In this document: positions 9,727 to 42,359 of the stretch, piece by piece | How the letters are laid out: every line of letters begins with the position of its first letter | How positions within the stretch are numbered: position 1 is the stretch's first letter | Assembly (NCBI GenBank): GCA_003551425.1 | Contig: PUMP01000059.1 | Coordinates: 1-64,000 of the forward strand | DNA length: 64,000 nt | DNA from: Candidatus Nealsonbacteria bacterium | Lineage (GTDB): Bacteria > Patescibacteriota > Minisyncoccia > Minisyncoccales > PWPS01 | Reading direction: 5' to 3' | The notes under the pieces: model-generated | Told to the model about the DNA's origin: nothing | Database searches by the model: none | Seen by the model: only the letters and a program-made list of their open reading frames with translations | Translations under genes and position numbers: made by a program

Positions 9727-10202
9727 TCTCTATAGGAATAGACCCGGGCATCGCCACTACCGGATACGGGGTAGTGGAGCATAAAGAAAATAATTTCATA
9801 TGCCTTGAGTATGGGATTATTGAAACGGAAAAGAGCATCTCCATGCCACAAAGATTAAGCTTACTAAACGAAAAGCTTTCTTTTATAATCAAAAAATACA
9901 ATCCCCATATAATTGGGATTGAAAACGTCTACTTCTTTAAAAACCTTAAAACCGCAATGCCGGTAAGCCAAGCAAAAGGAGTAATCATGATGACCGCAGA
10001 GAAAGAAGGTATCCCGATAGAAGAGTTTACTCCCCCTGAAATAAAGGTAGCCGTTACCGGTTACGGCCAGGCAAACAAAGAACAAGTAAAAAAAATGATT
10101 CAACTTCTTTTAAATTTAAAAGAAAAACCGCATCATGATGATGCGGCGGATGCTTTGGGAGCATCTATCTGCGCAATAAACAAAGCTATGTCACTTCTTT
10201 AA
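9723..10202 (+). CDS. ruvC: Crossover junction endodeoxyribonuclease RuvC
   Basis: 'MISIGIDPGIATTGYGVV' and the catalytic acidic residues 'IGIENVYF' and 'HHDDAADALG'. Confidence 0.9.
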   Translation: MISIGIDPGIATTGYGVVEHKENNFICLEYGIIETEKSISMPQRLSLLNEKLSFIIKKYNPHIIGIENVYFFKNLKTAMPVSQAKGVIMMTAEKEGIPIEEFTPPEIKVAVTGYGQANKEQVKKMIQLLLNLKEKPHHDDAADALGASICAINKAMSLL

Positions 10203-11367
10203 ATCTTCTCTTTCCCACTTTTACTATCATCCCCTTCTTTACGCTTATTTTAGCGTGAGGCTCTTTAATTATGTTTTGATCTATCTTTACTCCTCCCTGG
10301 ACTATAAGCCTCTTTGCCTCTGCCCGAGAAGAAACCATTCCACAAGACTCCAAGAGATCAATAATGCCCATTTCTCCCTCTTCTAATTTAACTTTTTCTA
10401 CATCTTCCGGGCTTTCCTTTTTTCGAAAAACACGTTCAAAATATTCTCCGGCCTCCTCGGCCGTTTTCTTTCCGTAATAAAGAGCTACTATACGAAAAGC
10501 AAGATCGGCTTTGGCGTCTCTCGGACTAAGCCTTTCAGCGGCAATGTCTTCTTTTATCTTTTGGAGCTCTTCATAAGAAGCGAAAGCACAAAACTCAAAG
10601 TAATCAAGAATTAAATCATCGTGTATGGACATTATCTTTCCATACATCTCTTTGGGTTCATCGTTGATGTTTACTACATTTCCCCAGCTGGTAGACATCT
10701 CTCTCCCGTCAAGACCATAAAGCATCTTGGACGTTATAATGTTTTGCGGTTTCTGTTTATAAAATCTTTGAATCTTTCTGCCGGCCTTTAAGTTAAAGAG
10801 TTGGTCAAAGCCACCTATCTCTACATCTGCATTAATCGCCACAGAGTCATATCCTTGGAGGAGAGGATATAAAAGCTCATGGAGGCCGATCGGCTTCTCT
10901 TGGTCCCATCTTTCTTTAAAATTGCGTCGCTGAATCATTTGCTGGGCGGTAAACTCCATCGCCAAAGGGATGAGTTTCCTTAAATCAAAGCCATTGAACC
11001 ATTCACTGTTATACCTAATTTCAACTTTCTCTATGTCCAATATCTTACTGATCTGCTCTTTGTAGTCTTTCATATTCTTGCTTATCTCTTCATCGGTAAG
11101 GTTGCTTCTCATCTCTTGCTTGTCGGAAGCATCGCCAATTTTAGCGGTAAAATCGCCTATTATAAAAACCACTTGATGTCCCAAATCTTGAAAGGCTTTT
11201 AATCGCCAAAACTGAGAGGCTCCTCCAAGATGAATATTGGTTCCTGTCGGGTCAAGGCCAAGCTTCACTCTCAACTTTTCTCCACTTTGAAGGGCTTCTT
11301 TTATCTCCTTTTCTCCTATTATATCTTCCGTTCCTCTTTCTAAGATATCTTTTATTTTTTCATTCAT
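10186..11367 (-). CDS. tyrS: Tyrosyl-tRNA synthetase
   Basis: A class I HIGH-like 'TGTNIHLGG' and KMSKS-like 'KMSTSWGN' are followed by a C-terminal S4 domain 'EAKRLIVQGGVKIDQNII'. Confidence 0.85.
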   Translation of the reverse strand: MNEKIKDILERGTEDIIGEKEIKEALQSGEKLRVKLGLDPTGTNIHLGGASQFWRLKAFQDLGHQVVFIIGDFTAKIGDASDKQEMRSNLTDEEISKNMKDYKEQISKILDIEKVEIRYNSEWFNGFDLRKLIPLAMEFTAQQMIQRRNFKERWDQEKPIGLHELLYPLLQGYDSVAINADVEIGGFDQLFNLKAGRKIQRFYKQKPQNIITSKMLYGLDGREMSTSWGNVVNINDEPKEMYGKIMSIHDDLILDYFEFCAFASYEELQKIKEDIAAERLSPRDAKADLAFRIVALYYGKKTAEEAGEYFERVFRKKESPEDVEKVKLEEGEMGIIDLLESCGMVSSRAEAKRLIVQGGVKIDQNIIKEPHAKISVKKGMIVKVGKRRFKEVT

Positions 11368-11430: not shown

Positions 11431-13293
11431 ATGACAAAAAGTAAAAAAGAAAAGCTACTTAATCTCCTTTATATATTCATAGCGGGCGTTCTTTGTATTG
11501 TTTTGATTGCACTACTGTTTTTTATTTATTTTGCACGTGACCTTCCACGCCCTGAAAGATTTATGGATCGCCCAACCGCCGAACCTACTCATATCTATGA
11601 CAGAACCGGAGATAACTTGTTATACACTATTCACGGGGAAGAAAGAAGGCAGACAGTAGAAATATCAGAAGTTTCCGATCATTTTGTCTCCGCCCTGCTT
11701 ACAGCAGAAGATTCCAACTTTTATAATCACCCCGGAATAGATTTTCAAGGCATTGTGCGCTCTGCAATAGTCAATTTGCAAACAGGAAGAACCGTTGCCG
11801 GAGGATCCACCATCTCTCAACAATTCGTACGTTCCGCTTTTCTTACCGCAGAGAGAACTTATATGCGAAAAATAAGAGAGATAATACTTACCTTAGAGCT
11901 TGAAAGAAGGTACTCCAAAGATCAGATTCTTGAATTTTATTTAAATCAAATTCCTTTTGGCCACAACGCATACGGAATTGAATCGGCGGCCCAAACTTAT
12001 TTCAATAAAACAGCAAAAGAATTAACCGCTGCCGAGTCTGCGGCCTTGGTCTCATTAATTCCTTCTCCAAGCCATCTTTCTCCTTTTGGAGAAAACAAAG
12101 AGACGCTGCTGGCAAGAAAGGATCATCTCTTAAATAGGATGCATGATGCCGATTTTCTTACAAAAGAGGAGCTGGAGGAAGCAAAAGAAGAAGAGCTGCA
12201 GTTCTCACCTTTTTCTATTTATCTCCGAGCCCCACACTTTGTAATGGAGGTCAAAGACCAGCTAGAAAAAAAGTACGGAGCGGATTTTTTAAGAAATAAC
12301 GGTCTCCGGGTTTACACCACTATTGATTATGAAATGCAGCAAAAGGCGGAAAATATTATAAAAGAAAAGGCTCTAAATAATTACCAGTACAACGCTTACA
12401 ACTCTGCTCTAGTTGCTATCGACCATAATACGGGAGAGATTCTTGCCATGGTAGGATCAATGGACTACTATCGTGACCCCATCCCCGAGGGATGTGTCCC
12501 GGGAGCCACCTGCAGATTCTCCCCCTACACAAATGTTGCAATGAGTGAAAGGCAGCCCGGTTCCGCCTTTAAGCCATTTGTGTATGCTACCGCTTTTCAG
12601 AACGGCTATAGCGGGAGTACCACGGTAATAGATGAAAAAACAAACTTCGGCACGGAGAGCAATCCTTATGTTCCCCGAAATTACGACGGCCAGTTCCGGG
12701 GAGAAGTTACTCTCCGCCAATCTCTTGCCCAATCTCTTAATATACCATCGGTAAAAACACTTAAAGAGTTGGCCGGACTGGAAAGAAGCATAGAAGATGC
12801 AAGAATGTTCGGAATAGAATTGCCTCGTGATGCTCAATTCTATGGTCTTCCTTTAGTGTTGGGCGGAGGAGACGTGAAATTACTAGAGATAACTTCCGCC
12901 TACGGTGTCTTTGGCTCCGGAGGATATAGAAACTCTCCTGTTTTTATTTCCAGGATTAAAGATAACAGCGGCAATATAATTGAAGAAAAAGAGAAAACAT
13001 CCAGAAGAGTGCTTGAGTCTTCCGTAGCAGAGGAAATAACTGACATTTTATCTGATAATGACGCAAGAGCTCCTGTTTTTGGAGAAGATTCATTATTACA
13101 CTTTAAAGATCGTGAAGTAGCGGTTAAAACAGGTACTACTCAAAGTTTTCGTGATGGTTGGACGATAGGATATGATTCTTCTATTGTAGTCGGAGTTTGG
13201 ACCGGGAATAACGACAACACCCCCATGATTAACGCTCCGGGAATTTCGGTTTCCGCTCCTGCTTGGAGAGAGTTTATGGAAAGCACTTTCTAG
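11431..13293 (+). CDS. Bifunctional class A penicillin-binding protein (GT51 transglycosylase + transpeptidase)
   Basis: N-terminal TM; GT51 motifs 'EDSNFYNHPGID' and 'GGSTISQQFVR'; transpeptidase SxxK 'SAFKPF', 'SLN' and 'KTGT'. Confidence 0.85.
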   Translation: MTKSKKEKLLNLLYIFIAGVLCIVLIALLFFIYFARDLPRPERFMDRPTAEPTHIYDRTGDNLLYTIHGEERRQTVEISEVSDHFVSALLTAEDSNFYNHPGIDFQGIVRSAIVNLQTGRTVAGGSTISQQFVRSAFLTAERTYMRKIREIILTLELERRYSKDQILEFYLNQIPFGHNAYGIESAAQTYFNKTAKELTAAESAALVSLIPSPSHLSPFGENKETLLARKDHLLNRMHDADFLTKEELEEAKEEELQFSPFSIYLRAPHFVMEVKDQLEKKYGADFLRNNGLRVYTTIDYEMQQKAENIIKEKALNNYQYNAYNSALVAIDHNTGEILAMVGSMDYYRDPIPEGCVPGATCRFSPYTNVAMSERQPGSAFKPFVYATAFQNGYSGSTTVIDEKTNFGTESNPYVPRNYDGQFRGEVTLRQSLAQSLNIPSVKTLKELAGLERSIEDARMFGIELPRDAQFYGLPLVLGGGDVKLLEITSAYGVFGSGGYRNSPVFISRIKDNSGNIIEEKEKTSRRVLESSVAEEITDILSDNDARAPVFGEDSLLHFKDREVAVKTGTTQSFRDGWTIGYDSSIVVGVWTGNNDNTPMINAPGISVSAPAWREFMESTF

Positions 13294-14408
13294 CCTTTAA
13301 TAGGCATTACCACATAAAGAAAATCACTCTTTCCTACGGGCTTTAAAACACCGGGGCTAGACTCTCCGCTTATTTCAAATATAACTTCAGAGCTTTTTAT
13401 ATTTAAGAGTCCATCTAAAAGAAAACGATAATTAAAGGAGATATTTGTTTTCTCTCCCTCTGCTCTTCCTTTTATTTTTGCCTTATAATCACCAAGGTCG
13501 GTAGCTTGGCTTTTAATGGTTATCTCTTCTTTCTCCGTATCAACATCCAAATTGACCTCATTAACCTTTCCACTAAAAACACTTGCTGCTTTGATTTTAT
13601 TTAAGAATTCATCTTTATCTAATATTATTTGAGATTTAAACTCGGAAGGAATAATACTTTTATAATCAGGATATTCACCTTCAATTAATTTAGATGTAAG
13701 CTCAATATAGGGCTGCTCCGCCTCTCTCATATCAACTTTAAACAAGATTTGGTTATCGCCAAAAACAATCTCCATATCTTCATCCAGTTCTTTAAAGATA
13801 TTAACAACTTCTCTTGCTGTTTTTTGGGGAATAATAAAAGAGAGATTGTTCACTTTGTTTTGTATACCAATATTCTTCTCTGCTAACCTATAACTATCGG
13901 TAGCAACCATTTTTATTCCTTCTTTTGTAAAAATAAGCAGCACGCCCGATATCTCCGGCTTTACTTTGGAAAGAGAAGGAATGTCGATAATTTGCGATAA
14001 ACCCTCACAAAAGGATTTACCACTTAATACTACGGAATCTTTTTTTGTTATCTTAGGGATAATAGGATACTCTTTTGCATTAATCCCATTTATCTTTATA
14101 TTATAATCCTTACACTGAACGGAAAGAACACTTCCTTTTAAATTCATATCCACTCTCTCGTTTGGTAATAAATTAATAAAATTGGAAAAAACACCAAAAG
14201 GAACCGTAATCTCTCCTTTTTTCTCCACTTTAGCAAGAGTCCACCACTTTACTCCAATCTCTAAGTCGGTAGAAGAAAGTGATAAAAAATTATCTTCTCC
14301 TTTTATTAATATATTTTTTAAAATTGGAAGAGTTGTAGACTTAATGGACGCTCTACTTATAATATTTAATCCTTCTTTTAATTTGTTTTGTAATACTTTA
14401 ATATTCAT
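13290..14408 (-). CDS. dnaN: DNA polymerase III beta sliding clamp
   Basis: Typical DnaN N-terminus 'MNIKVLQNKLKEGLNIISRA...LPILKNILI'. Its ~370 aa length fits three clamp domains, and it lies downstream of dnaA. Confidence 0.9.
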   Translation of the reverse strand: MNIKVLQNKLKEGLNIISRASIKSTTLPILKNILIKGEDNFLSLSSTDLEIGVKWWTLAKVEKKGEITVPFGVFSNFINLLPNERVDMNLKGSVLSVQCKDYNIKINGINAKEYPIIPKITKKDSVVLSGKSFCEGLSQIIDIPSLSKVKPEISGVLLIFTKEGIKMVATDSYRLAEKNIGIQNKVNNLSFIIPQKTAREVVNIFKELDEDMEIVFGDNQILFKVDMREAEQPYIELTSKLIEGEYPDYKSIIPSEFKSQIILDKDEFLNKIKAASVFSGKVNEVNLDVDTEKEEITIKSQATDLGDYKAKIKGRAEGEKTNISFNYRFLLDGLLNIKSSEVIFEISGESSPGVLKPVGKSDFLYVVMPIKG

Positions 14409-14585: not shown

Positions 14586-15929
14586 TTACATAGAAGATAT
14601 TGTTTGCTTGATATATAATATCTCTTCTTTTAATTCCTCGTTATTTTTTATTTCTTCTATTATCTTTTTATAAGAATACATTACTGTGGTGTGGTCTTTA
14701 CCGCCTATCTTTTTCCCTATAAAAGGAAAAGAATAATTTAACTCATCTCTCATTAGATAGATAACAACTTGTCTTGGCTTTACAATCTCTTTCTTTCTAG
14801 AAGATCCCCTTACTTCTTTTTCATTTATATCATAAAAGTCACTTACCACTTTAATTATCTTTTGTGGTGAAAAAGAGATTGCCGATGATTGGATAATGTT
14901 CTTTAAAAGGCTTTTTGTCGTTTCAAGATTAATCTCTTTTTTGTTTATTTTTTGGTGAATAATTAATTTATTTAAAACACCTTCCAATTCTCTTATGTTT
15001 TTTTGTATATTTTCTACTATATAAGAGCAAGCGTCATCGGGGAGATTAAAGTCCTTTTCAAGTGCTTTTTTCTTAAGAATAGCGGCCCTTGTTTCGGTGT
15101 CCGGATAATCTATATCGGTAATCATTCCTCCTTCGAAGCGGGATCTTAATCTGTCGGTAAGAGCGTTAATGGATTTAGGCGGCCTGTCGGAAGAAAGTAT
15201 TATTTGTTTGTTCTTTTCGTATAATTCATTAAAGATATGAAAGAACTCTTCTTGTGTTTTTTCTTTTCCGGAAAGAAACTGAATATCATCAATAATGATT
15301 ACATCAATATCCTTGTATTGTTCTTTAAAAGAATCCATTTTTCCGTTTCTAATAGCGGAGACCACTTCGGAAATGAATTTTTGTGCTTGAATATACAGTA
15401 TATTCTTATCTTTAATTTTATTTCTTATCTCGTTTCCCGCGGCTTGTAAAAGGTGCGTTTTCCCAAGTCCTGTTTTCCCGTAGATAAAAAGAGGGTTATA
15501 GATATTTCCGGGGCTCTCTGATACGGCAAAACTGGCGGCTTGGGCAAGCTCATTAAAAGGACCAACAACAAAATTTTCAAATGTGTATTTCGGGTTTAAT
15601 CCCGTAACAGAATCTACGGAAAATTCTTGAAACTGCATCTGGTTAATAGCCTCTTTTTCTTCCTTTGGAGCCTCTTTCTTGATTGGTGCTCTTACAACAT
15701 AGTCAACTTCTTTTATGTTGGTATTTAACTCTCTTAATGTTTTTAGTATTGTCTTATTGAACTTACTTTCCAGCCACTCTTTGACAAAAGAATTGGGAAC
15801 GGCAATAGTTATCTTCGGGTTTTCCAGGGAGTAAATCTGAGTATTTTTAAACCATGTATTAAAGCTTGCTTCAGAGATATTTAATTGTACTTGAGCTAAA
15901 ACTGATTGCCAAAGCTTTTCTTTCTCCAT
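14586..15929 (-). CDS. dnaA: Chromosomal replication initiator DnaA. The start was moved to the internal Met 'MEKEKLWQSV'; the 42-aa upstream extension of the ORF is rejected.
   Basis: Typical N-terminal 'LWQSVLAQVQ..ISEASFNTWF'. AAA+ 'GKTGLGKTHLL', 'IIIDDIQF', a sensor region and the C-terminal DNA-binding helix-turn-helix 'TTVMYSYKKI'. Confidence 0.9.
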   Translation of the reverse strand: MEKEKLWQSVLAQVQLNISEASFNTWFKNTQIYSLENPKITIAVPNSFVKEWLESKFNKTILKTLRELNTNIKEVDYVVRAPIKKEAPKEEKEAINQMQFQEFSVDSVTGLNPKYTFENFVVGPFNELAQAASFAVSESPGNIYNPLFIYGKTGLGKTHLLQAAGNEIRNKIKDKNILYIQAQKFISEVVSAIRNGKMDSFKEQYKDIDVIIIDDIQFLSGKEKTQEEFFHIFNELYEKNKQIILSSDRPPKSINALTDRLRSRFEGGMITDIDYPDTETRAAILKKKALEKDFNLPDDACSYIVENIQKNIRELEGVLNKLIIHQKINKKEINLETTKSLLKNIIQSSAISFSPQKIIKVVSDFYDINEKEVRGSSRKKEIVKPRQVVIYLMRDELNYSFPFIGKKIGGKDHTTVMYSYKKIIEEIKNNEELKEEILYIKQTISSM

Positions 15930-16114
15930 AGTTGTTTTAAAAATTAAAGTAAATTCAACTGAATGGATTATAACATAATTAAAATAGTGTGGAAAACTCT
16001 TTTTATTTGTTAAAATCTTAATAAGTTGTGGAAAATGTGGGGATAAGTTAATCAACTGTTAAAATTGACTTTTTCTTTTGTTTAAAGTAAAATACAAAAG
16101 TAAAATCTTAAATT
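15930..16114. promoter_or_regulatory. Candidate oriC / dnaA promoter region carrying a cluster of DnaA boxes
   Basis: Between the dnaA start and rpmH there is 'tgtggaaaa' twice plus 'tgtggggataa' (TTATCCCCACA on the other strand). It lies in the conserved rpmH-dnaA position. Confidence 0.5.
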
Positions 16115-17309: not shown

Positions 17310-17748
17310 AGAAGAAATGAAAAAGATTATTTTTGAGTTCTTCCGTCTCATTGATCCCGATATAAGGGTGGATTTTCCTGCTTCTGAAGAGAATACGATT
17401 AATGTCTGTGTAAAAATAAAAGATCCCGAGTCTTTGATAGGAGAAAAAGGAAGAACCCTGGTTGAGACGGAGAGATTATTCAAGATTATAGCAAGAAAGA
17501 AGAGCAAGGACCCTCTTTTTGTAAACCTTGATATTAACGATTATAAGAAGAGAAAAGGAGACCAATTAAAAGAGCTTGCAAACAGTACGGCAGACGAAGT
17601 CTCTCTTACCGGGATAGGAAAAAAATTTCCTCCCATGTCTGCTTACGAAAGGAGGATTATTCATATGGCGCTTGCGGAGAGAGAAGACGTGCTAACAGAG
17701 AGCGTAGATGAAGGTTCTCAGAGAAGAGTTGTTATCAAAAAGAGCTAG
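17293..17748 (+). CDS. Jag/KhpB-like RNA-binding protein (KH + R3H domains)
   Basis: R3H motif 'YERRIIHMALAEREDVLTESVDEGSQRRVVI'. It follows yidC as in the rnpA-yidC-jag operon. Confidence 0.75.
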   Translation: MKNMHKEEMKKIIFEFFRLIDPDIRVDFPASEENTINVCVKIKDPESLIGEKGRTLVETERLFKIIARKKSKDPLFVNLDINDYKKRKGDQLKELANSTADEVSLTGIGKKFPPMSAYERRIIHMALAEREDVLTESVDEGSQRRVVIKKS

Positions 17749-19562
17749 TCTTGCAGATCTTTTCCTTTCTCCTCTTTTATCCTTTCCAGTTCTTCCGGAG
17801 AAGATGTTATAATCTGGTCTTCCGTGTAAGATGCATTAATCTCGATAACCACCCTCTTTTGGCCGGCAAAAAAGATACCTTCTCCTATCTGTCCCTCTAA
17901 GAGAACAAATTTTTCTTCATCTGTGAGACTGAAAGTCTTTTGAACTTTGTCAATTACCGCGGATGACTGTTTAAGAAGTATTTTTAAAGCAGAGTTAGTG
18001 ACGATCGGCTTACCGTATTCGGACTTCATAAAGTCGGCGACATCTTGGGTTATGGTCGTAACCCCTAGCCAGTATTTCCTTGACCTTTTGACAAGGCCAA
18101 AGAGGAAAGACGCTCCGTCTTCGGTTTGCATCATCCACCAAGCTTCATCTACCACAAGGATACGTTTTTTTGTTGCGGAAGTCACTGCTTTCCATATGTA
18201 ACGCATGATAATGAACATTGCCATAGTTCTAAGCTCTTCCTCCAAATTTCTTATTCCAAAGACAGAAAGATTTCCTTCAAGCTTGACATTGGAGTATTGG
18301 TTGAAGAACTTTGCGTAAGTTCCTCTTGAAAACTTTCGAAGACGAAGAATAAGTGATCTTGTTCCTTCCATTGACTCTAAAACCTCTTCCAGGTCAGAAA
18401 AGAGAGGTACTTTTTCCTCCCAAGTATCGGGATCACTGTCTGCCGTTATGTCTTTTGCGGCGTAAGTTGCAATAATTGCTTGATCTATAATTGCGTCTTC
18501 TTCAGGAGTTAATCCCCCAAGCATAATCCTCAAGAGACCAACAAGATTAATCGTATTTGTCCTTAAAACCTCCTCTGCCGTTTCTCCTTCCTTGGGAACG
18601 GGGATATCAAAGGGATTTATGTGATTATCTGATCCGAGAGAGATATCGTAGAAAGAGCCTCCGGCTGCTTCAGCCAATGTTTTATATTCATTTTCCGGAT
18701 CAATAACAATTGCCTCTGTTCCCGTCATGAGCGACCTTAAAAGGGCTAACTTTACAAGATACGATTTTCCTGACCCCGCTGTGCCGAAGACTACTTCGTT
18801 GGGATTTTCAAGATCAAAACGGTCAAAAAGTACAAGAGAGTTGTTGTGCTTATTGATTCCGTATAAGATGCCGTCATTAGAGCTGAGCTCGGAAGAGATA
18901 AAGGGGAATATACTGGAAAGAGGCTCCGTGTTCATGGGGCTGTGAGTCTGAAGAACATCTCTTCCGTACGGAGAGGTGCTGATAAAGCCACTCTTTTGCT
19001 GGAAAAGCGCGGACTTGAGATAAACTACTTTAGATTCCAGAATTGATCTTAAGACAGTTTCCGTGTCTTCCAGGTCTTTTTCAGTCTCTCCATAGATGGT
19101 GATATAAAATCCAAACTGAAACATTCTTTCTTGCGCTGATTGAAGCCTGTTTCGCAAGTCTTCCAGGTCTTGGTGGGCTGTTTCTAGTGCAGGGTCACGA
19201 ACCATGCCCTTATCTTCATTCTCCATTATCTCTGCCTGTACTTCGGTAAGCTTCTTTCTTAGTTTTTTAAGGACTTGTGTTGTATCTACGGCGTGGATGA
19301 AGAACGCTATATCCATCGGAGCATTTAAGTTAATAATTGAAATTAGCCAGCCGCTTGTTAAATAGTGAGGATAAGAGAAAACGAAGAAAGAGCGAGAAGT
19401 CTTTTCTCCTATCTTAAGCTCTCCCTGTTTTTCTTCTATAAAAGAAGGAGCGATAATATCTTTTATCTCAAAGAAATCATCCTCCTCTTCTTCAGTAGAA
19501 GATTTCTTTTGGGGAATGTCGAGCCCAAACATCTTTTTAAAGTTTTCTATAAAGTTTGACAT
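17745..19562 (-). CDS. VirB4/TrbE/CagE-family type IV secretion ATPase (ATPase moiety; C-terminal ~600 aa of a split VirB4)
   Basis: Walker A 'GTAGSGKSYLVK', Walker B 'RILVVDEAWWMM' and a C-terminal 'GVTTITQDVADF' helicase-like motif. The overall organisation matches Gram-positive VirB4 (PrgJ/TcpF-like). Confidence 0.75.
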   Translation of the reverse strand: MSNFIENFKKMFGLDIPQKKSSTEEEEDDFFEIKDIIAPSFIEEKQGELKIGEKTSRSFFVFSYPHYLTSGWLISIINLNAPMDIAFFIHAVDTTQVLKKLRKKLTEVQAEIMENEDKGMVRDPALETAHQDLEDLRNRLQSAQERMFQFGFYITIYGETEKDLEDTETVLRSILESKVVYLKSALFQQKSGFISTSPYGRDVLQTHSPMNTEPLSSIFPFISSELSSNDGILYGINKHNNSLVLFDRFDLENPNEVVFGTAGSGKSYLVKLALLRSLMTGTEAIVIDPENEYKTLAEAAGGSFYDISLGSDNHINPFDIPVPKEGETAEEVLRTNTINLVGLLRIMLGGLTPEEDAIIDQAIIATYAAKDITADSDPDTWEEKVPLFSDLEEVLESMEGTRSLILRLRKFSRGTYAKFFNQYSNVKLEGNLSVFGIRNLEEELRTMAMFIIMRYIWKAVTSATKKRILVVDEAWWMMQTEDGASFLFGLVKRSRKYWLGVTTITQDVADFMKSEYGKPIVTNSALKILLKQSSAVIDKVQKTFSLTDEEKFVLLEGQIGEGIFFAGQKRVVIEINASYTEDQIITSSPEELERIKEEKGKDLQD

Positions 19563-19563
19563 T

Positions 19564-20193
19564 TTACATAATAAGTTCTTCCGGTATTTCCGGGAAGTAC
19601 CCCTTTTCCGCTTGTTTTGGATGGTGCATGCTCCAAAGCAACTCTATGAGCTCGGAAGAAGTAAGCGGAACGGAGTGAAGGCTGCACCTGCGAAGCCCCA
19701 AAGCCACAAACTCCATTCTTTGGTATAACTGATCTCTTGATCTTTTAAAAACTTCTTCGGAAAGAGTTCCTTTGCGTGATGCTACAACGTCACGGGTTGA
19801 AGTCTTTGTTTCACCGACACTGTAAGGGACAACAACGAAGAAATTCTTGCTATAGACATCTTCTTTTCTTACAAACTCTTCCAAAAAGTCTATATATCCC
19901 GCTGTTTGGTGCCGTAAAAGATCATTAGTCTGTTCTTTCTTGAGCTCTTTAATTTTATCTATATATCCTCTGATATTGGTTCTCCTGGACTGAACCACAA
20001 TTTGTAAATAAAAATCCAAAGAGTTTAAAAAGGCTTGGAAGTGATAGATGATTGCCTTTTGCTCTTCTTCGGACTTTAAGACGAAGTTTATCGATGAAAT
20101 CATTAAGATTCCCCGTAACTGATTGTTTTTTAGAACAATCAACCCTTCTCTTATTTGCTTTATTTCAAGTAACTCTTGTGTGCTTAAAGGCAT
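19564..20193 (-). CDS. Probable N-terminal domain of VirB4 encoded as a separate ORF (stop TAA, 1 nt, then ATG of the ATPase ORF)
   Basis: Its 209 aa plus the 605 aa of the next ORF equal the ~800 aa of a full VirB4. 'INFVLKSEEEQKAIIYHFQAFLNSLDFYLQIVVQSRR' resembles the CagE_TrbE_VirB N-terminal region. The junction reads ATTATGTAAAATGTCA. Confidence 0.4.
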   Translation of the reverse strand: MPLSTQELLEIKQIREGLIVLKNNQLRGILMISSINFVLKSEEEQKAIIYHFQAFLNSLDFYLQIVVQSRRTNIRGYIDKIKELKKEQTNDLLRHQTAGYIDFLEEFVRKEDVYSKNFFVVVPYSVGETKTSTRDVVASRKGTLSEEVFKRSRDQLYQRMEFVALGLRRCSLHSVPLTSSELIELLWSMHHPKQAEKGYFPEIPEELIM

Positions 20194-20195
20194 AT

Positions 20196-20621
20196 TTAAA
20201 ATGTTTCAATACGTGAGCTCACCTTGCCGAGCCTACTGCCTTTTTTTAATTTTTTCTCTTCCTCCCTTTCTTCTGTTTTTTTCTTCTTTGGGAGAGACCT
20301 CTTCTTTCTTTCTGTAGATATTTTAACCGGTTTTTCTTTTTTTTCCCATACATACTCTTTTGAAGCTGTAGAGAAAGCAATATAGTTTTTAATGTAGTTA
20401 GAAAGAGGCATTTCGTTAATTTTTAAAAAAGCCAAAGCGACTCCTCCTGTAGCCACAAAGGCGGAAATGAAAAAGAAAAGGAGCAAACTTACTTCTCTTA
20501 ATATAAGATAAAGGAAAAAGATAATAAAAGCCGCGATTCCAAGCGGGATAATTTGTTGGAAAGTAGCAGGGCCCACTATTTTTGCCTCATGCTCAATATT
20601 CCTTGGCACTTTATATCTCAT
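20196..20621 (-). CDS. Small two-TM membrane protein, VirB3/PrgI-like T4SS component
   Basis: 141 aa with two adjacent TM helices after an N-terminal 'KVPRNIEHEAKIVGPATFQQ'. It sits immediately upstream of VirB4 as VirB3 does, and has a lysine-rich C-terminal tail. Confidence 0.4.
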   Translation of the reverse strand: MRYKVPRNIEHEAKIVGPATFQQIIPLGIAAFIIFFLYLILREVSLLLFFFISAFVATGGVALAFLKINEMPLSNYIKNYIAFSTASKEYVWEKKEKPVKISTERKKRSLPKKKKTEEREEEKKLKKGSRLGKVSSRIETF

Positions 20622-24721: not shown

Positions 24722-26173
24722 TTATTCCCACCAACCTTCTTCGCATGAATATAGTCCCCACAAACCTTCCCAGCAGACATTAATTGTTACATCTTCGGTC
24801 ATTTCAATGTTAGGGATATATCCATCGTTAATAGCGGGATCTCCTTCTTTTGACCATTCGAAAGTTGTTCCCCACCATTCGGAGCCAACCTCATGAAGTG
24901 CTACAATATTACGGTGTTCCGGAATCTCTGTGCGGCATCTATTTCTAGCTTCCACGAACCCGCAATCAATGTACCCATGATGAGGGGGGCGGTGCTTTGT
25001 CTCTATTCTCATAATGTCAAGCTCGATACCCCAGTCATCTTCATCTGCTTCTCCAATATGGCCCCGATAAGGGTTAATGGTCAGAGTAAATGTCTCTATG
25101 CCGTCGGGAAGATCCAGTGGTCCGGAGTAGCACCGATTAGGAGAGCTGTCTCTGCAATAGGTGCGAGAAATCTCTACGGCACCTTCCTCCGGGTCTGTTG
25201 TTCCTATTGCCTCTCTTTCTTGTCTTCTTTCAATCTCCATGCAATCTATTGATCTTCCAAATCCGAAAATTCCTTCCTCCAGATCAACCGTAGGTATTGA
25301 GCCGCGGCTTAATTTTTCACCACAAGCGACTTCTGGAGCTCCAATCTCCCACCAGTTTGCTGTTGCTTCATAAAGATCGGCTATGGAAGTTCCTCCTTCT
25401 TTATATAAGCCCCTGGGGTCCGGTCTCATTTTCTCACCGGGACCAAACCTTTCCGCCTGATGGCTGCCAATTCCTATTATATCTCCTCCTTGCCCCATTG
25501 TTTGTTCTATTTCTACCGGAGGACTATATCTCTGATACCCAAGAGATATGCCGTCTTCTAGTTGTTTCATTTCATCCGGCGGTATTGCCGTATATCCCTT
25601 TACCGATTTTGGAGAATGATCTTCGTGTATTTCATCGGCTTCTAGTTGTATGTTGTATATATCCTTGTTTCTTATATAAACCGTGGCAATGTGATCTTCA
25701 TGGTTTTTCTTGGCGTAAAACTCCATAATATCAACGGGTTCTCCTTCAAGGTCTGCGAGACTTAGATCGGAAATATAGACTTCGTCATGAATGCTAAAAG
25801 TTACGGGAGAGATTCTTACCAGTTCGGGGTTTATCATGCTTAATATTACCCAAGAAGATAAAAGCAATACTAGCCCTATTACTGCGGACTGGATTCTTGA
25901 CAAAGCATCTTGCATCACGGCGGGCTTTCCGGCAGAGATTGTGTATTGAAATCCGGAGAATACCAGGATGCCAAATACCAGCAATATGCCGATAATAATT
26001 CCCCACTCGTAAAAGTATGCGATAAGTTCGTGAAGTGGCATATCGCGCCGGAACTCTATGGTGGGAGAGTCTGGCCAAGCAACTTCCGTATTGGCAATAG
26101 CCACGGAGAAAGACGCAAAAAATAAAAAGAGAGAAGAAAAAAGCGTTTTTAAATTAAGTATTTCTTTTTTCAT
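24722..26173 (-). CDS. Secreted/membrane protein with an N-terminal signal peptide plus a two-helix pilin-like module, followed by a ~380 aa Cys/His/Trp-rich extracellular domain
   Basis: The signal peptide is followed by 'HELIAYFYEWGIIIGILLVFGILVFSGFQY...AVIGLVLLLSSWVILSMINP'. This two-helix module is similar to the C-terminal modules of the 26874-29972 and 41710-42222 proteins. Confidence 0.5.
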   Translation of the reverse strand: MKKEILNLKTLFSSLFLFFASFSVAIANTEVAWPDSPTIEFRRDMPLHELIAYFYEWGIIIGILLVFGILVFSGFQYTISAGKPAVMQDALSRIQSAVIGLVLLLSSWVILSMINPELVRISPVTFSIHDEVYISDLSLADLEGEPVDIMEFYAKKNHEDHIATVYIRNKDIYNIQLEADEIHEDHSPKSVKGYTAIPPDEMKQLEDGISLGYQRYSPPVEIEQTMGQGGDIIGIGSHQAERFGPGEKMRPDPRGLYKEGGTSIADLYEATANWWEIGAPEVACGEKLSRGSIPTVDLEEGIFGFGRSIDCMEIERRQEREAIGTTDPEEGAVEISRTYCRDSSPNRCYSGPLDLPDGIETFTLTINPYRGHIGEADEDDWGIELDIMRIETKHRPPHHGYIDCGFVEARNRCRTEIPEHRNIVALHEVGSEWWGTTFEWSKEGDPAINDGYIPNIEMTEDVTINVCWEGLWGLYSCEEGWWE

Positions 26174-26865
26174 GCTTCGTTTTCTGTTTTAATCTCTATG
26201 GAATCCATTATATGGTTTACTTGTTCAGAAAAATCTTCCCAAAGACTGGAGATTATGAAAACGGAAACCATGTATCTTTCGTTATCAATATGTATTATTT
26301 GTTCTTTTGCTCGAACCTCTCCTATCGGGCTTTTATACTTTGTTTTAAATATTTTTCCATGTTTTGTTTCTTCTTCTTCCAAAATCTCACGGGAAGTATC
26401 TTTCACAAAAATATCTTCCGTTTTTTTCAATAAATCACCTTCTTCCGCACCATCTTCTCTTAAAACAGTCATTCCCGCCTTTGCCTCAAAAGGCCCTACA
26501 AGAAAAGAGGTAAAAAGGATTTCAATGTTCTCCTGATCCAAGTCTTCTATATCTTCTACAGATTCCCAGTGCGAAGGGTATGCTACTCTTATTTTGTCAT
26601 TTGGCCCTGTAAATTCTTCATATTCTATCTCTTCGGCGCTTTTTAGTTCTTCGTTATTTAGGCTTCGATATTCATCCAGATAATCTCCGCTAATAATGTC
26701 TTCCATGGAAGGAAGAGAATATTCCGAAGTGGCTATTTCTCTTTCCGGAAACCTGGGGTGAGTAACGCCCTCTTTATTCCCGGTTTGCTGGCTGTGAAAA
26801 TAGGTAGAAAGAACCAGGAAAGCTATCATCAAGAAGCTTATTATAACTATTTTTTTATCCGACAT
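26170..26865 (-). CDS. Hypothetical N-terminally membrane-anchored acidic protein
   Basis: N-terminal TM 'IVIISFLMIAFLVLSTYF'. It is co-directional and overlaps its neighbours by 4 nt. Confidence 0.4.
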   Translation of the reverse strand: MSDKKIVIISFLMIAFLVLSTYFHSQQTGNKEGVTHPRFPEREIATSEYSLPSMEDIISGDYLDEYRSLNNEELKSAEEIEYEEFTGPNDKIRVAYPSHWESVEDIEDLDQENIEILFTSFLVGPFEAKAGMTVLREDGAEEGDLLKKTEDIFVKDTSREILEEEETKHGKIFKTKYKSPIGEVRAKEQIIHIDNERYMVSVFIISSLWEDFSEQVNHIMDSIEIKTENEA

Positions 26866-26873
26866 TTTTATGA

Positions 26874-29800
26874 TTATAATTCAATTTGCCACCAAAATCC
26901 ATATATGCTTGTATCATATCCTATCATAGGCATTCCCATTGTTAAAATAAGCCATCCGAAGAAAAGGATGACAAATCCGATTCCTACCGCTCTCCAAACA
27001 GCCTTTACTCTTGCCAAGACCTCTGTTCCCAAGGAAGGAGAAAGGTAAAATATTGCCCCTGTTGCCAGTATCATTAATCCAATAGCGACGGGAAAGAGGT
27101 TCCAAAGAACAAAATCGATTAATACTTTAAATAATATCAATAAATGCTTGGGCTGGCAAGATTCTCTTTCATTCCAGTCGGTATCCGGGCTGTTATATGT
27201 CCTGCCACAAGGAACAAGGCCGACGCCGTCAACCTCTACTTCGTAGTAATTGAAAGACCACCAGGGAGAAAAGTCTCCGCTTTCTTCGCACTCGCTGTCA
27301 AGGCAAGATTTTACTCTCCACTCATAATCTCCCAGGTCAAATAACCTTAAAAAGAAATTATTATCGGAGATAATCTCTTTTTCTTTCTCTCCGTCGGGAA
27401 AAATAACTTCGTATTTATAATAATTTGCTCCCCTAATAGCGTTCCAAGAAACATCGATATTTCTTTCTTCGGTAAAAATCTCGGCGTTATCTTGAGGGCT
27501 GGGGACAGAAGGAGCGTAAAGAGTAAAGGTGGTGAACTCTACCGGAGGAGTAAAGAATCCTCCGCAATAATCGGTGCCCGGATCGGCACAAGTTTCCACT
27601 GTCCAAGAATAAGATTCTTCTGTTTTAATTTTCGGATAGTCAAGACGGATCCTTGTCGTTGAAGTATGACTTCTTTTTATCTTATCTCCTTCTTTGTTAA
27701 ATAACTCGAATACATAGGATTTTGCCCCCGAAACAGCTCCCCACTCTGCGTTAAGGGGAATTAAAACTTCTTGGGCTTTGTTATAAGGAGTTGCGGTTTT
27801 ATTTAAGTCGGGAGGACGTCCGGTAGTGGTAAATTTATGCCAATCCGTCCAAGTGTCGTTACAATCGTCTCCGTTTTCGTCGTAGCAAGACCTGAGCCGC
27901 CACCTGTAATCTGTGTTAAGAGCAAAGTCATCTATGTCTATCCTGGTATTGGTATCTTGAAGGTGTCTTTCTATTGTTCCTCCTTCTCCGTCCATTCTTT
28001 CCAGCTGAAAATAATAGGAGTGAGCACCAAATGGCTTGTTCCACTCAAAATAAGCGCTGGGATGAATGGCGATAGGATTTCTCCCCTCTGGATCGTTAAG
28101 AGGAGAGAGTCCGGAGGGGTTCTCAAGACCCCCGGAAACAATAAACTTCCATATTTGACCATAATCGGTGCAGTCTTTTCTGGAGTGGTCTTTACAAGCG
28201 GCGATTTGCCATCCGTATATCTCTCCTTTTTCATCGAATAGTCCGACATTTTTATTAATTAATTTTGTAGGAGGGTCTCCTCTATGGATAGGAACAAGAC
28301 TAGGATCGTGAATGGGGACAGGTTCGCAAAGACCTCCCAAGCGAACACGGTCGGGATGACACTCCAGTTCACCGCCTATTTCTTTATAGGCATAAAGCAA
28401 ATAAGCCTTATAATCTTCCTCTCTTTCATGGTCACACCAAGTTGGGTTTGCGTCTTTAAAGTCTATAGGGTTATGATGAGTCCCCGCCATACTTTCCGGA
28501 TCTACCCATCCGGAATCATAAGGGGAAAGCGGTTCGGGAGCCTCGTTGGTTTGAAATCCCGGCCAACTGCTCCACTTTCCGCAGTCTGTACCATCAGTGC
28601 TACAACAAGCCTGTACTTTCCAGTTATGGGTGTCGCCGGGCCTAAGAAGGCAGCGGTCTGCATTGAAGTTATTACGGGAAACCGTGGTTTCAAGAGCTTT
28701 CCCCGAAGAGCTTGAGGTTAGCTTATAGGAAGAGCCTGCTATCTTTTCACTATTATCTTTGTTTAAGGCAGCTAAATCTATCCTTGAATCGGAAGGAGAT
28801 TTCTCTAGAAGAAGATCGTTTTCGTAAGGATCTTCCATTTCGCCGTTATAGAGATCTTCTGGAGGAGTCTCTTTATCTGATACATATTTTGGCACATAGC
28901 CTGGAACATAATAAGTTGCTCTCCCCATGTTGCTATGATTCCTAATATAATTAATAGTTTCTGCAAAGACTAGCTGATTACGATCAAGATATTTAAGAGG
29001 ATCGTCATGTCCACGATCAACACCACCGCTCCAGCAAGAACCCAAACAAACATCAAGATGCAAATGAACTCCAGTAGAGGCTCCGGTAGTTCCCATTCTT
29101 CCGATTTGTTGTCCTTGCTCTACTTTATCGCCTGGACTAACGAACATACTATGGAGATGAAGATACTGCGTATATAGATTATCTCCACTGCCCGTTATAT
29201 CACCGTGATTGATTCTTACAGTATTTCCCGCGCCTCTTCCAGGGGTACCGATATATCTTGCTATAGTTACTTTACCTTCTGCTGCTGCATATATAGGTGG
29301 ATTAGTAAATCCTGATTGAACAAAGTCAGTCCCAAGATGAAAATGGCCAACATCCATGTCCCAGCCACTGCGATCTTGGGCAAAATTAGAAGTAACTCTT
29401 ATATTTTTTAATTCTAATGGCCAAGCAAGAAGTCCTTCTTCCGGAGCAGGAGGAGGGTCGCCAATAGGCTGAGAGGGGTCGTCGGGATCGGGATGAAGAA
29501 AATCTCTGGTGGTATTGTCTATCTTTATGTTATAAGAGCTTGGTCCCGTATCTTCATTCCATCCTGAGACATTGTCCCAAGCAAGAGCTACGGGAAGATA
29601 TATGTCATCATTTCCTTCATAAGGATAATCGGACTGAAGAATTGTTGTTGCTGGATTGGCGTAATACTCTTCGTTTTGCGGAGCATCTAAACACTCACCG
29701 GCACAGGAGCAATCATTTTTTGTAGCATCACACTTTTCCCAAGAGTTGCAATTTTCTTTAGTTACCCAACGAGTATTACCGCATCCATCTTCTTGCTGTC

Positions 29801-29972
29801 TCTGCAATGTTCCTCCGCAGCTACCAACACAGCGCGTGTTATTGGTATTACTCCAGCTGGGCTCACACTCTTCGGCATTAGCCAAGTTTATCCCCAAAGC
29901 AAGGAAGGCGGTTATTATTAAAAAAAGAGAAAATAATAAGAGAGTTTTTATGTTGGCTGGCTTAAATGACAT
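26874..29972 (-). CDS. Large secreted M23-family (LytM-type) peptidoglycan metallopeptidase. Architecture: Cys-rich N-terminus, M23 domain, three Fn3-like repeats, and a C-terminal two-helix pilin-like membrane module.
   Basis: Signal peptide present. M23 motifs 'HLGTDF', 'GKV...GNTVRINHGD....YTQYLHLHS..V..GDKVEQGQQIGRMGTTGASTGVHLHLDV'. Three ~90 aa repeats (YYFQLE...YRWRLRSCYDENGDDC; YVFELF...YSWTVETCADPGTDYC; YKYEVI...YEWRVKSCLDSECEES). The C-terminal 'VGLVPCGRTYNSPDTDWNERESCQ...' plus two TM helices is shared with the 41710-42222 protein. Confidence 0.7.
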   Translation of the reverse strand: MSFKPANIKTLLLFSLFLIITAFLALGINLANAEECEPSWSNTNNTRCVGSCGGTLQRQQEDGCGNTRWVTKENCNSWEKCDATKNDCSCAGECLDAPQNEEYYANPATTILQSDYPYEGNDDIYLPVALAWDNVSGWNEDTGPSSYNIKIDNTTRDFLHPDPDDPSQPIGDPPPAPEEGLLAWPLELKNIRVTSNFAQDRSGWDMDVGHFHLGTDFVQSGFTNPPIYAAAEGKVTIARYIGTPGRGAGNTVRINHGDITGSGDNLYTQYLHLHSMFVSPGDKVEQGQQIGRMGTTGASTGVHLHLDVCLGSCWSGGVDRGHDDPLKYLDRNQLVFAETINYIRNHSNMGRATYYVPGYVPKYVSDKETPPEDLYNGEMEDPYENDLLLEKSPSDSRIDLAALNKDNSEKIAGSSYKLTSSSSGKALETTVSRNNFNADRCLLRPGDTHNWKVQACCSTDGTDCGKWSSWPGFQTNEAPEPLSPYDSGWVDPESMAGTHHNPIDFKDANPTWCDHEREEDYKAYLLYAYKEIGGELECHPDRVRLGGLCEPVPIHDPSLVPIHRGDPPTKLINKNVGLFDEKGEIYGWQIAACKDHSRKDCTDYGQIWKFIVSGGLENPSGLSPLNDPEGRNPIAIHPSAYFEWNKPFGAHSYYFQLERMDGEGGTIERHLQDTNTRIDIDDFALNTDYRWRLRSCYDENGDDCNDTWTDWHKFTTTGRPPDLNKTATPYNKAQEVLIPLNAEWGAVSGAKSYVFELFNKEGDKIKRSHTSTTRIRLDYPKIKTEESYSWTVETCADPGTDYCGGFFTPPVEFTTFTLYAPSVPSPQDNAEIFTEERNIDVSWNAIRGANYYKYEVIFPDGEKEKEIISDNNFFLRLFDLGDYEWRVKSCLDSECEESGDFSPWWSFNYYEVEVDGVGLVPCGRTYNSPDTDWNERESCQPKHLLILFKVLIDFVLWNLFPVAIGLMILATGAIFYLSPSLGTEVLARVKAVWRAVGIGFVILFFGWLILTMGMPMIGYDTSIYGFWWQIEL

Positions 29973-36455: not shown

Positions 36456-36467
36456 GAGCCAAAAACC

Positions 36468-41592: not shown

Positions 41593-41619
41593 ATTTTTAA
41601 GATTAATTTATCTCTCTAG

Positions 41620-41692
<73 letters not shown>

Positions 41693-41709
41693 AAATCAAA
41701 CAAAGCAGC

Positions 41710-42222
41710 TTAATCTTCTTCTATCGTACAATCTATTTTATAAATCCCCTCATCCCACCAGTCTTCAAACCCCCAGCTGTCTTCTTCCGTCATTCCCATA
41801 CCTTCAAGAATAAGCCCTACTGTGACCCATGCGGTGTAAGCGATAAGAACGCCGGCGATAGCTACAAGGATAACAGTTCTTCCTTTTTTATATCCCTCGG
41901 GATTGGCAGAGTTCGTATAAAGCGTGATTCCACCGAAGATTATAAGGATAATGGCGGCTGCGGGAATCATTCTTGTCATAAAGAAATCGACTACATTGCC
42001 GAAAATTACAAACAAGTGGCATAACTGACAGTCCGGCAAATGATCTTCGGGTCCGCAAGGAACAAGCCCGACACTGACATCATAACATGTACTGTCATGC
42101 CAATGATATCCTGCCTCTTCACACTCTTCTTTGGTGTTAAGGCCCTCAACCTCGTAATTTGCCAAGGCAAGAAGGGGAAGAGCCATGAAAAGAAGAACAA
42201 CTATCAATATCCTTTTTAGCAT
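41710..42222 (-). CDS. Small secreted Cys-rich protein with the same C-terminal two-helix pilin-like membrane module found in the M23 giant protein
   Basis: Signal peptide 'MLKRILIVVLLFMALPLLALA'. 'VGLVPCGPEDHLPDCQLCHLFVIFGNVVDFFMTRMIPAAAIILIIFGGITLY...ILVAIAGVLIAYTAWVTVGLILEGMGM' aligns with the C-terminus of the 26874-29972 protein (VGLVPCG identical, with conserved C, H and helix spacing). Confidence 0.55.
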   Translation of the reverse strand: MLKRILIVVLLFMALPLLALANYEVEGLNTKEECEEAGYHWHDSTCYDVSVGLVPCGPEDHLPDCQLCHLFVIFGNVVDFFMTRMIPAAAIILIIFGGITLYTNSANPEGYKKGRTVILVAIAGVLIAYTAWVTVGLILEGMGMTEEDSWGFEDWWDEGIYKIDCTIEED

Positions 42223-42285
42223 TTGGTAATTATAATCTTTTTTAACAAAAAATCAAAGGGCGCTTTTTCTAAAGGCTTAACTTTG

Positions 42286-42359
42286 TACCCCGGGAGGGAT
42301 TCGAACCCCCAACCTGCGGTTCCGAAGACCGACGCTCTATCCAGTTGAGCTACCGGGGC
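42286..42359 (-). tRNA. tRNA-Arg (TCG)
   Basis: On the reverse complement: acceptor gccccgg/ccggggt, D-arm tagctcaactggatagagc, anticodon stem tcggt/accgc with loop ctTCGga, T-arm ggggg-ttcgaat-ccctc. Confidence 0.75.

Follow-up and report, generated by a model that had tools for sequence, protein, structure and literature searches.

In a 64,000-nt stretch of Candidatus Nealsonbacteria DNA (assembly GCA_003551425.1, contig PUMP01000059.1, positions 1 to 64,000; hereafter the window) we examined a standalone gene at 41710..42222 on the minus strand (stop codon included). Its 170-aa product is probably a divergent but genuine patescibacterial VirB2-like pilin of the Pfam family PF18895 (T4SS_pilin; T4SS, type IV secretion system), distantly related to the TrbC/VirB2 pilins of PF04956. 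The same contig encodes VirB4, PrgI/VirB3 and two more PF18895-type modules, and the window pilin is most likely a VirB2-like membrane or pilus subunit of this nearby VirB4 machine. The evidence consists of the predicted two-helix topology, profile homology to proteins that exceed the PF18895 cut-off, a family-wide signature with conserved cysteines, and the nearness, in some relatives, of a T4SS-linked pilin-fusion gene.

Gene structure and predicted topology

A preliminary description of this DNA had placed a 170-aa open reading frame (ORF) at exactly this position, and its sequence strings (CEEAGYHWHDSTCYD, VGLVPCGPEDHLPDCQLCH and GMGM) were all found in proteins of the window. The ORF is real and not a chance one, given a 54%-identical syntenic orthologue (P0002, 139 aa) and thousands of homologues; it matches the family hidden Markov model (HMM) at 3.5e-47. 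Both hydropathy and the AlphaFold2 model agree with the signal peptide and the two transmembrane helices of the preliminary description. Hydropathy gave a signal-like segment at the N-terminus and hydrophobic segments at residues ∼83-104 and 114-140. AlphaFold2, run with a 34-sequence alignment (mean predicted local distance difference test score, pLDDT, 78.9), placed helices at residues 2-19 (signal), 67-103, and 108-141, with a pLDDT of 86-94 in the hairpin.

Five parts can be distinguished, all on the minus strand. The signal peptide (aa 1-21, MLKRILIVVLLFMALPLLALA followed by N; 42160..42222) corresponds to the first AlphaFold2 helix and ends in an apparent AXA-type signal peptidase I site. 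Cleavage of the precursor after ALA21 (ALA, then N) is predicted from the AXA rule, hydropathy and charge distribution, and in the family alignment a small residue (A or G) occupies position -1, just ahead of the mature N-terminus. The next 30 residues (aa 22-51, NYEVEGLNTKEECEEAGYHWHDSTCYDVSV; 42070..42159) form a lineage-specific insertion, which the alignment shows to be missing from P0002; it carries the extra cysteines C34 and C46 and was modeled as a small helix (31-36) and a beta-hairpin (40-47). The family signature GLVPCG-x8-CQLCH (aa 52-69 with C56, C65, C68, and H69; 42016..42069), defined by column conservation, is extracytoplasmic and stands immediately ahead of helix 1. The two-helix transmembrane hairpin (aa 70-141; 41800..42015) is the VirB2/TrbC-like core, as delimited by AlphaFold2, hydropathy and the PF18895 match at residues 76-138, and its helices are joined by the short basic loop SANPEGYKKGR. 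An acidic C-terminal ectodomain tail (aa 142-170; 41713..41799) has the conserved columns W155, W156, I163, and C165. The protein thus contains six cysteines, at positions 34, 46, 56, 65, 68, and 165. As read from the sequence, each of the two tails has a net charge of about -10 and the loop contains the basic KKGR; by the positive-inside rule, the acidic tails and the KKGR loop point to an N-out/C-out orientation of the hairpin.

Assignment to the PF18895 family

A word-indexed homology search with the single protein retrieved only the protein itself and the orthologue P0002, which carries a precomputed PF18895 annotation and scores 25.5 bits on that model. An exhaustive HMMER search over 1.84 billion representatives was performed with a profile built from the window pilin, P0002 and the pilin module of a 1032-aa M23-peptidase protein in the window (the M23 giant). 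It yielded 6434 proteins at E<=1e-3, of which 1310 reached E<=1e-10. P0009, P0013, P0026, P0078, and others were retrieved at E values of ∼1e-22 to 1e-24 and score 39-48 bits on PF18895; with 47.7 bits P0026 is above the gathering cut-off of 26.6 bits. Among the short members aligned with the window pilin, 50 of 57 matched PF18895, 17 matched PF04956 and 8 matched NCBIfam NF045849 (a Mycoplasma pilin-like family of integrative and conjugative elements, ICEs) at E<=1e-3, the NF045849 scores all being far under the family cut-off. P0058, which reaches 30.9 bits on PF04956 over the full model, was the only one of 10 singly scanned relatives to pass that cut-off (27.9 bits).

The window pilin itself scored 18.3 bits on PF18895 (E=0.0025; residues 76-138, profile positions 11-71 of 71) and 18.5 bits on NF045849 (E=0.0012; cut-off 40). 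The PF18895 model spans the hairpin only; GLVPCG, CxxCH and the C-terminal Cys fall outside, and the window pilin scores poorly for that reason. Its membership is transitive, since it is homologous to proteins that do pass the cut-off. The VirB2/TrbC likeness proposed in the preliminary description is therefore borne out by the two-helix topology and the family profile, and not by the protein's own Pfam score.

The layout is shared across the family. A signal peptide is followed, mostly directly, by GLVPCG, then by a variable loop and C-x2-C-H-x-F. A long helix (VP..A.LM..GG), a short G(N)PE...K loop and a second helix (G124, W132) make up the hairpin, and the tail carries W155-W/F and I163-x-C165. 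One relative from outside the window, P0057 (606 aa), consists of seven tandem pilin hairpin modules without Cys, a "pilin array" in a single polypeptide.

Conserved cysteines in the family

Cysteine statistics were collected from 158 family modules, in 150 of which the CxxCH columns are present. Modules of the 4-Cys type (C56, C65, C68, and C165) number 112; those of the CxxC type comprise 77 standalone proteins, 35 N-terminal fusions and 6 C-terminal fusions. A 2-Cys type with the pattern GLVPCGR..NPDT.WNERE.CQxKH accounts for 30 modules, 23 of which form the C-terminal part of proteins 573-1668 aa long. W155 is found in 140 of the 158 modules and C165 in 113, plus 5 mis-aligned cases. The third and fourth cysteines, C68 and C165, go together: both are present in 112 modules (again with the 5 mis-aligned ones in addition) and both are missing in 30, and the fourth never occurs without the third. 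In the seven modules that seemed to have the third without the fourth, the Cys was shifted by two residues in five (...DCP, ...NCP, ...ECE) and the sequence was truncated in two. Taken with the N-out/C-out topology, this strict co-occurrence suggests two disulfides, C56-C65 and C68-C165, of which the latter would join the N- and C-terminal tails.

The T4SS-like locus and three pilin modules

The window is an origin-proximal chromosomal region in which dnaN (13290..14408) and dnaA (14586..16055) are followed by rnpA, yidC, and jag (R3H). A T4SS-like locus begins directly after jag, which fits the ori-proximal placement of such loci in Patescibacteria (PMC12102498). It encodes, all on the minus strand, a VirB4-like ATPase (17745..19562; Pfam P-loop_TraG 1.4e-24 and AAA_10), a 209-aa TraC-N-like protein (19564..20193), a PrgI/VirB3-like protein (20196..20621; PrgI 6.7e-11), a 739-aa polytopic membrane protein (22480-24699), a 483-aa protein (24722..26173), and the M23 giant (26874..29972; Peptidase_M23 3.4e-21); a 231-aa protein stands between the last two. 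The first three are T4SS core genes. The 739-aa protein has a loop rich in Cys (CTHIEFYPGEGVCPSGTVPGDPQFCEGEEPCCCE) and a C-terminal tail that is long and charged; it had no match in the Pfam scan, and its likeness to VirB6 is one of position alone.

A six-frame scan of the window with the family HMM detected exactly three pilin modules, and the 170-aa protein is the only short, unfused copy. One of the others lies at the C-terminus of the M23 giant (aa ∼914-1032; 26877..27233, minus strand; family HMM 2.9e-30), contains VGLVPCG and ...LTMGMPMIGYD, and belongs to the 2-Cys CQxKH subfamily. The other is the N-terminal module of the 483-aa protein (aa 1-119; 25817..26173, minus strand), a signal peptide plus hairpin without the Cys motif, which exceeds the PF18895 cut-off with 28.6 bits and matches the family HMM at 4e-8. 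The homology of the window pilin to the C-terminus of the giant, already claimed in the preliminary description, was reproduced (E=1e-13, 29% identity over 157 residues). The identical VGLVPCG cited there is no sign of close paralogy: GLVPCG is nearly invariant across the family (P in 145, C in 149, and G in 143 of 158 modules). In a local BLAST comparison of ∼185 family sequences, the giant's module ranked 151st for the standalone pilin and the standalone pilin 124th for the giant's module, and the nearest relatives of the giant's module were the C-termini of other giants (570-1670 aa; 46-52% identity). Judged by these sequences, the standalone pilin (4-Cys, CxxCH) and the giant's module (2-Cys, CQxKH) are ancient paralogues from different subfamilies. 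Between its peptidase domain and its pilin module the giant has at least four Cys-bearing repeats of the form Y-x-W-x(3)-C-x-D...C...W-x-F, which are fibronectin type III (FN3)-like. The 30-aa insertion of the standalone pilin weakly resembles the last of these repeats, the one that precedes the module.

A conserved chromosomal position

Beyond the M23 giant come ksgA, a LysM-M23 protein, dksA, and three large proteins, two being coiled coils rich in E and K, followed by pnp, NYN, rpsO, tRNA-Lys, the pilin, tRNA-Arg, the CCA-adding enzyme, and then housekeeping genes. In agreement with the preliminary description, the two tRNA genes flank the pilin. The tRNA-Lys(ctt) gene (41619..41692) follows its stop codon after 17 nt, and the tRNA-Arg(tcg) gene (42285..42359) lies upstream of its promoter; both are on the minus strand like the pilin. 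That description had also put the pilin about 12 kb from the T4SS-like locus. We measured 11.7 kb to the end of the M23 giant (29972), the nearest T4SS-linked gene, and 22 kb to virB4.

We compared the context with 15 related loci from metagenome-assembled genomes (MAGs) of Nealsonbacteria, Paceibacterota and Minisyncoccales (some labelled Saccharibacteria). The nearest relative, PWNV01000014.1 of a Ca. Nealsonbacteria MAG, has an identical gene order, both tRNAs included. Across the 15 loci the pilin adjoins CCA/tRNA-Arg and/or tRNA-Lys-rpsO-NYN-pnp, and the order CCA-tRNA-Arg-pilin-tRNA-Lys-rpsO-NYN-pnp is kept in Nealsonbacteria-like genomes whose pilins are merely 28-54% identical. The upstream tRNA-Arg is kept in L001, L006, L009, L011, L013, and L015; the upstream neighbours in L004, L007, L008, L010, and L014 are instead LysM-M23 and ksgA. 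In L007, L008, and L014 only 1.8-4 kb separate the short pilin from a homologue of the 483-aa fusion protein; in L013 the distance is 8.3 kb. Because the synteny of tRNA-Arg, pilin, tRNA-Lys, and rpsO is conserved, the flanking tRNAs do not mark an insertion. We concluded that the standalone pilin is a stable chromosomal core gene at the fringe of the T4SS neighbourhood.

Some variation was seen at the same site. In L009 (1861-2883) and L011 (9914-10930) the syntenic pilin, located after CCA and tRNA-Arg and not followed by tRNA-Lys, is ∼340 aa long, with a long C-terminal Gly/Asp linker and a Cys-rich domain; the "standalone" site can thus also host a fused pilin. The two E/K-rich low-complexity coiled-coil proteins (959 and 752 aa; 33576-38726, minus strand), which separate the T4SS neighbourhood from the pilin, had no Pfam match among the scanned genes. 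They are 53-61% identical to proteins of the Nealsonbacteria relative L001, and tblastn gave no homologous match in several of the related loci (e.g., L006, L010, and L014).

Expression signals

A near-consensus sigma-70-type promoter, TTGATT-16-TATAAT, was identified at 42229..42256 on the minus strand by consensus match only (10 of 12 positions). Its -10 hexamer ends 6 nt ahead of the pilin ATG, a Shine-Dalgarno sequence is absent, and the orthologues show the same -10-to-ATG geometry. The start regions of ∼57 window genes indicate that the genome essentially lacks Shine-Dalgarno sequences, and a TATAAT-like hexamer stands 5-7 nt ahead of the ATG at, for example, 10186..11367, 11431.., 20196..20621, 26170..26865, 42422.., and 54975... 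The occurrence of this arrangement ahead of many operon-first ATGs implies widespread leaderless mRNAs. Since orthologues and operon-first genes of this genome share the geometry, leaderless expression appears to be the local norm, and the pilin mRNA would be leaderless from its own promoter.

On the downstream side, tRNA-Lys(ctt) follows the pilin in 11 of the 15 related loci (L001, L004, L006-L008, L010, and L013-L017), even where the upstream neighbour differs; the two genes overlap or are separated by 0-21 nt in nine loci and by 103 nt in two. No terminator-like site was seen in the 17 nt between the pilin stop codon and tRNA-Lys in the window (41693-41709). Co-transcription of pilin and tRNA-Lys is likely from this tight spacing and the lack of a terminator between them, which suggest an mRNA-tRNA co-transcript cut by RNase P.

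Alternative explanations

Several observations weigh against a VirB2-like pilin working with the VirB4 machine. On its own the protein misses the PF18895 gathering cut-off (18.3 vs 26.6 bits), and PF04956 gave no match to it even at E<=1. A search of PDB sequences with the family profile returned nothing significant, VirB2 (8exh) appearing at E=3.3, and Foldseek against the PDB matched nothing but unspecific helical hairpins, none of them significant, the best being ATP synthase subunit c at E=0.68. The C-terminal tail was poorly resolved by AlphaFold2 (pLDDT 58-67), and the Cys co-occurrence signal amounts to essentially one phylogenetic split, between the 4-Cys and the CQxKH clades. In the 15 related loci, tblastn found no VirB4, PrgI, or VirB6-like gene within 10 kb of the pilin, which together with the housekeeping neighbours makes the linkage of the pilin to the T4SS loose. 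Finally, no pilus has been shown for any Patescibacterium so far (PMC12857230). The preliminary description had proposed looking for the family next to VirB4 in other genomes; in none of the 15 related loci was a virB4 found within 10 kb of the pilin. A weak P-loop match was seen around the pilin in L011 (tblastn, E=0.004). The top of the PDB profile search was held by photosystem I PsaF precursors (best E=0.0095), which share a signal peptide plus GLVPC, probably a short-motif coincidence.

The loose linkage would also be expected if the module were a generic two-helix anchor for surface proteins (there is no sortase/LPXTG here) and the 170-aa protein a small surface or adhesion protein, T4SS-independent and non-polymerising. 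The module is indeed fused to larger ectodomains in ∼65 of the 150 best family representatives (35 N-terminal and 29 C-terminal fusions, in proteins of up to 1668 aa), and within the window the M23 giant and the 483-aa protein both carry it. The standalone gene sits amid housekeeping genes, away from virB4 as just described, and its product bears the lineage-specific 30-aa Cys mini-domain. Against a pure anchor, however, about half of the family is short and unfused, which would make little sense, and the family shows profile homology to TrbC/VirB2 pilins. In 1135 assemblies, moreover, PF18895 genes have been placed in the neighbourhood of virB4, and the pilin arrays of a T4SS cluster proved essential (PMC12102498, PMC10633639). 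An anchor function and a pilin role are not mutually exclusive either, since minor pilins can carry domains. We regard the anchor explanation as unlikely, and as the strongest of the competitors to a VirB2-like pilin.

CQLCH might instead be a c-type haem site or, jointly with C56 and C165, a Cys/His metal site in a small membrane-anchored redox or metal protein. A CXXCH is literally present; H69 occurs in 125 of the 150 modules and is kept even in the CQxKH subfamily that lacks C68, and the four Cys and the His all lie on the outer side of the membrane. But the His is replaced by Asp in 24 of the 150 modules and the second Cys of CxxCH by Lys, Arg, Met, or Ser in 30, which is incompatible with an obligatory haem c site, and the c-type haem site was rejected on this ground. 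No cytochrome or haem family in Pfam or NCBIfam matched the window pilin or its relatives, cytochrome c maturation genes were not seen among the scanned window genes, and Patescibacteria generally lack respiratory chains (PMC10633639). The strict co-occurrence of C68 and C165 is more simply explained by a disulfide. A redox or metal protein is very improbable.

Least probable of all, and rejected on synteny, composition and subfamily grounds, is a functionless recent copy of the giant's C-terminus duplicated or inserted into a tRNA hotspot: tRNA genes are classical integration sites and VGLVPCG is common to both proteins, but the gene order is kept at 28-54% pilin identity, the GC content (0.44) and third-position GC content (GC3, 0.42) of the pilin gene are similar to those of neighbouring genes, the two modules are each other's 151st and 124th best matches with different Cys patterns, and the signal peptide, the promoter, and a full-length orthologue are intact or conserved.

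Comparison with known systems

The patescibacterial VirB2-like pilin family is already described; the conserved four-Cys pattern, the tight tRNA-Lys linkage and the leaderless promoter have no counterpart in the literature that we found. A search of 3035 Patescibacteria genomes with PF18895, PF04956 and other profiles (Quinonero-Coronel et al., 2025; PMC12102498) recorded VirB2-like pilins in 1948 assemblies with VirB4; in 1135 of these the pilins were close to virB4. The same study reported 441 arrays of 2-11 pilins, T4SS loci adjoining dnaA and mostly without relaxase, and PF18895 pilin copies distant from virB4. T4SS genes and a pilin array were shown to be essential in Southlakia epibionticum (Wang et al., 2023; PMC10633639), and a 2025 review stressed a patescibacterial pilus as a possibility only (PMC12857230). 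We found no mention in the literature of the signature made up of GLVPCG, CxxCH and the C-terminal Cys, the 2-Cys subfamily fused to giants, or the pilin-tRNA-Lys linkage, which are modest additions.

The closest systems are found in Ca. Southlakia epibionticum ML1, with its essential pilin array, and in Ca. Nanosynbacter lyticus TM7x, with its "Sec-secreted array". The window pilin shares with them the signal peptide plus hairpin, PF18895 profile homology, and a patescibacterial genome in which a VirB4/PrgI T4SS of MPF_FATA-like type, without relaxase, lies beside dnaA and several divergent paralogues occur. Unlike those arrays, it is single, located 22 kb from virB4 in a conserved housekeeping/tRNA context, and under the Pfam cut-off; its Cys signature and 30-aa Cys mini-domain lie outside the Pfam model, and its paralogues in the window are fused.

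The pilins TrbC (RP4) and VirB2 (Agrobacterium T-pilin) of PF04956 likewise start with a long signal peptide, and their two hydrophobic helices are linked by a loop that is short and basic. Pilins of this kind mature by proteolysis with head-to-tail cyclisation (RP4 TrbC, T-pilin) or N-acetylation (F-pilin) and polymerise into extracellular conjugative pili containing bound phospholipid. A further, proposed parallel is a joining of the N- and C-terminal ends on the outer face, by a peptide bond in TrbC/VirB2 and by a putative disulfide in the window pilin. The window pilin differs in its monoderm host, in its mature length of ∼149 aa (about twice as long), and in its acidic Cys-containing tails. 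No TraF-like cyclase, cyclisation motif or processing site was identified, the cyclase having been looked for by Pfam scans of the window genes only. The Mbov_0395 family (NF045849) of Mycoplasma ICEs, to which matches are weak, also consists of small membrane proteins with two helices and belongs to an MPF_FATA-type system of monoderms; unlike the window pilin it lacks the Cys signature and occurs in a mobile-element rather than a chromosomal core context. Archaeal conjugative (Ced/Ted) pilins from Aeropyrum pernix (8dfu) and Pyrobaculum calidifontis (8dft) are also among the closest known systems.

Proposed mechanism and significance

For a VirB2-like subunit of the VirB4 machine the following sequence of events can be proposed. 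Transcription would start from the gene's own near-consensus promoter, give an mRNA without a leader and probably continue into tRNA-Lys(ctt), 17 nt past the stop codon. The precursor would be inserted by Sec/YidC and cut after ALA21, leaving a mature pilin of ∼149 aa as an N-out/C-out hairpin with the KKGR loop in the cytoplasm and two strongly acidic tails pointing outward. Extracytoplasmic C56-C65 and C68-C165 disulfides may then form, as Cys co-occurrence suggests, the second tying the C-terminal tail to the N-terminal segment; C68-C165 would be an analogue, outside the covalent backbone, of the head-to-tail cyclisation of TrbC/VirB2. The VirB4/VirB3(PrgI)/VirB6-like machine encoded 12-24 kb away would draw on the membrane pool to assemble a polymer that is pilus-like or lines a channel.

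By analogy with VirB2 systems and the essential Southlakia pilin arrays, the short unfused pilin would be the bulk subunit, and the 483-aa protein and the M23 giant would be minor subunits or machine-proximal anchors; these fused paralogues might present a large ectodomain and a peptidoglycan hydrolase to the host cell. The lone short, unfused copy in the window makes a "major subunit" role a reasonable guess. That it is the major pilin of a real pilus is a tentative proposal by the same analogy, with the chances somewhat against it. We find it rather doubtful that "disulfide-stapled" GLVPCG...CxxCH...WW-IxC pilins, the 2-Cys giant-hanging form, and a leaderless pilin-tRNA-Lys(ctt) co-transcript will all hold together.

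In the one Patescibacterium that is genetically tractable, epibiotic life depends on the T4SS, which may or may not build a pilus (PMC10633639, PMC12857230). The window pilin adds no new kind of component. The GLVPCG, CxxCH and C-terminal IxC signature outside the current Pfam model recovers members under the Pfam cut-off, and a structural hypothesis is offered: a disulfide staple in the 4-Cys subfamily, with a 2-Cys subfamily mostly fused to giant hydrolases. If the joint reading were true, monoderm epibionts would reach by oxidation what TrbC/VirB2 reach by enzymatic head-to-tail cyclisation, and the 2-Cys CQxKH variant, having lost the C68-C165 pair, would be a specialised form by which giant enzymes such as M23 peptidases are attached to that polymer. 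In Nealsonbacteria-like genomes, production of the main T4SS structural subunit would further be coupled to a growth-linked promoter of tRNA strength. As a single short pilin that is a core gene with a fixed locus tied to tRNA-Lys, the window pilin is the obvious candidate when seeking the filament in Nealsonbacteria-like genomes.

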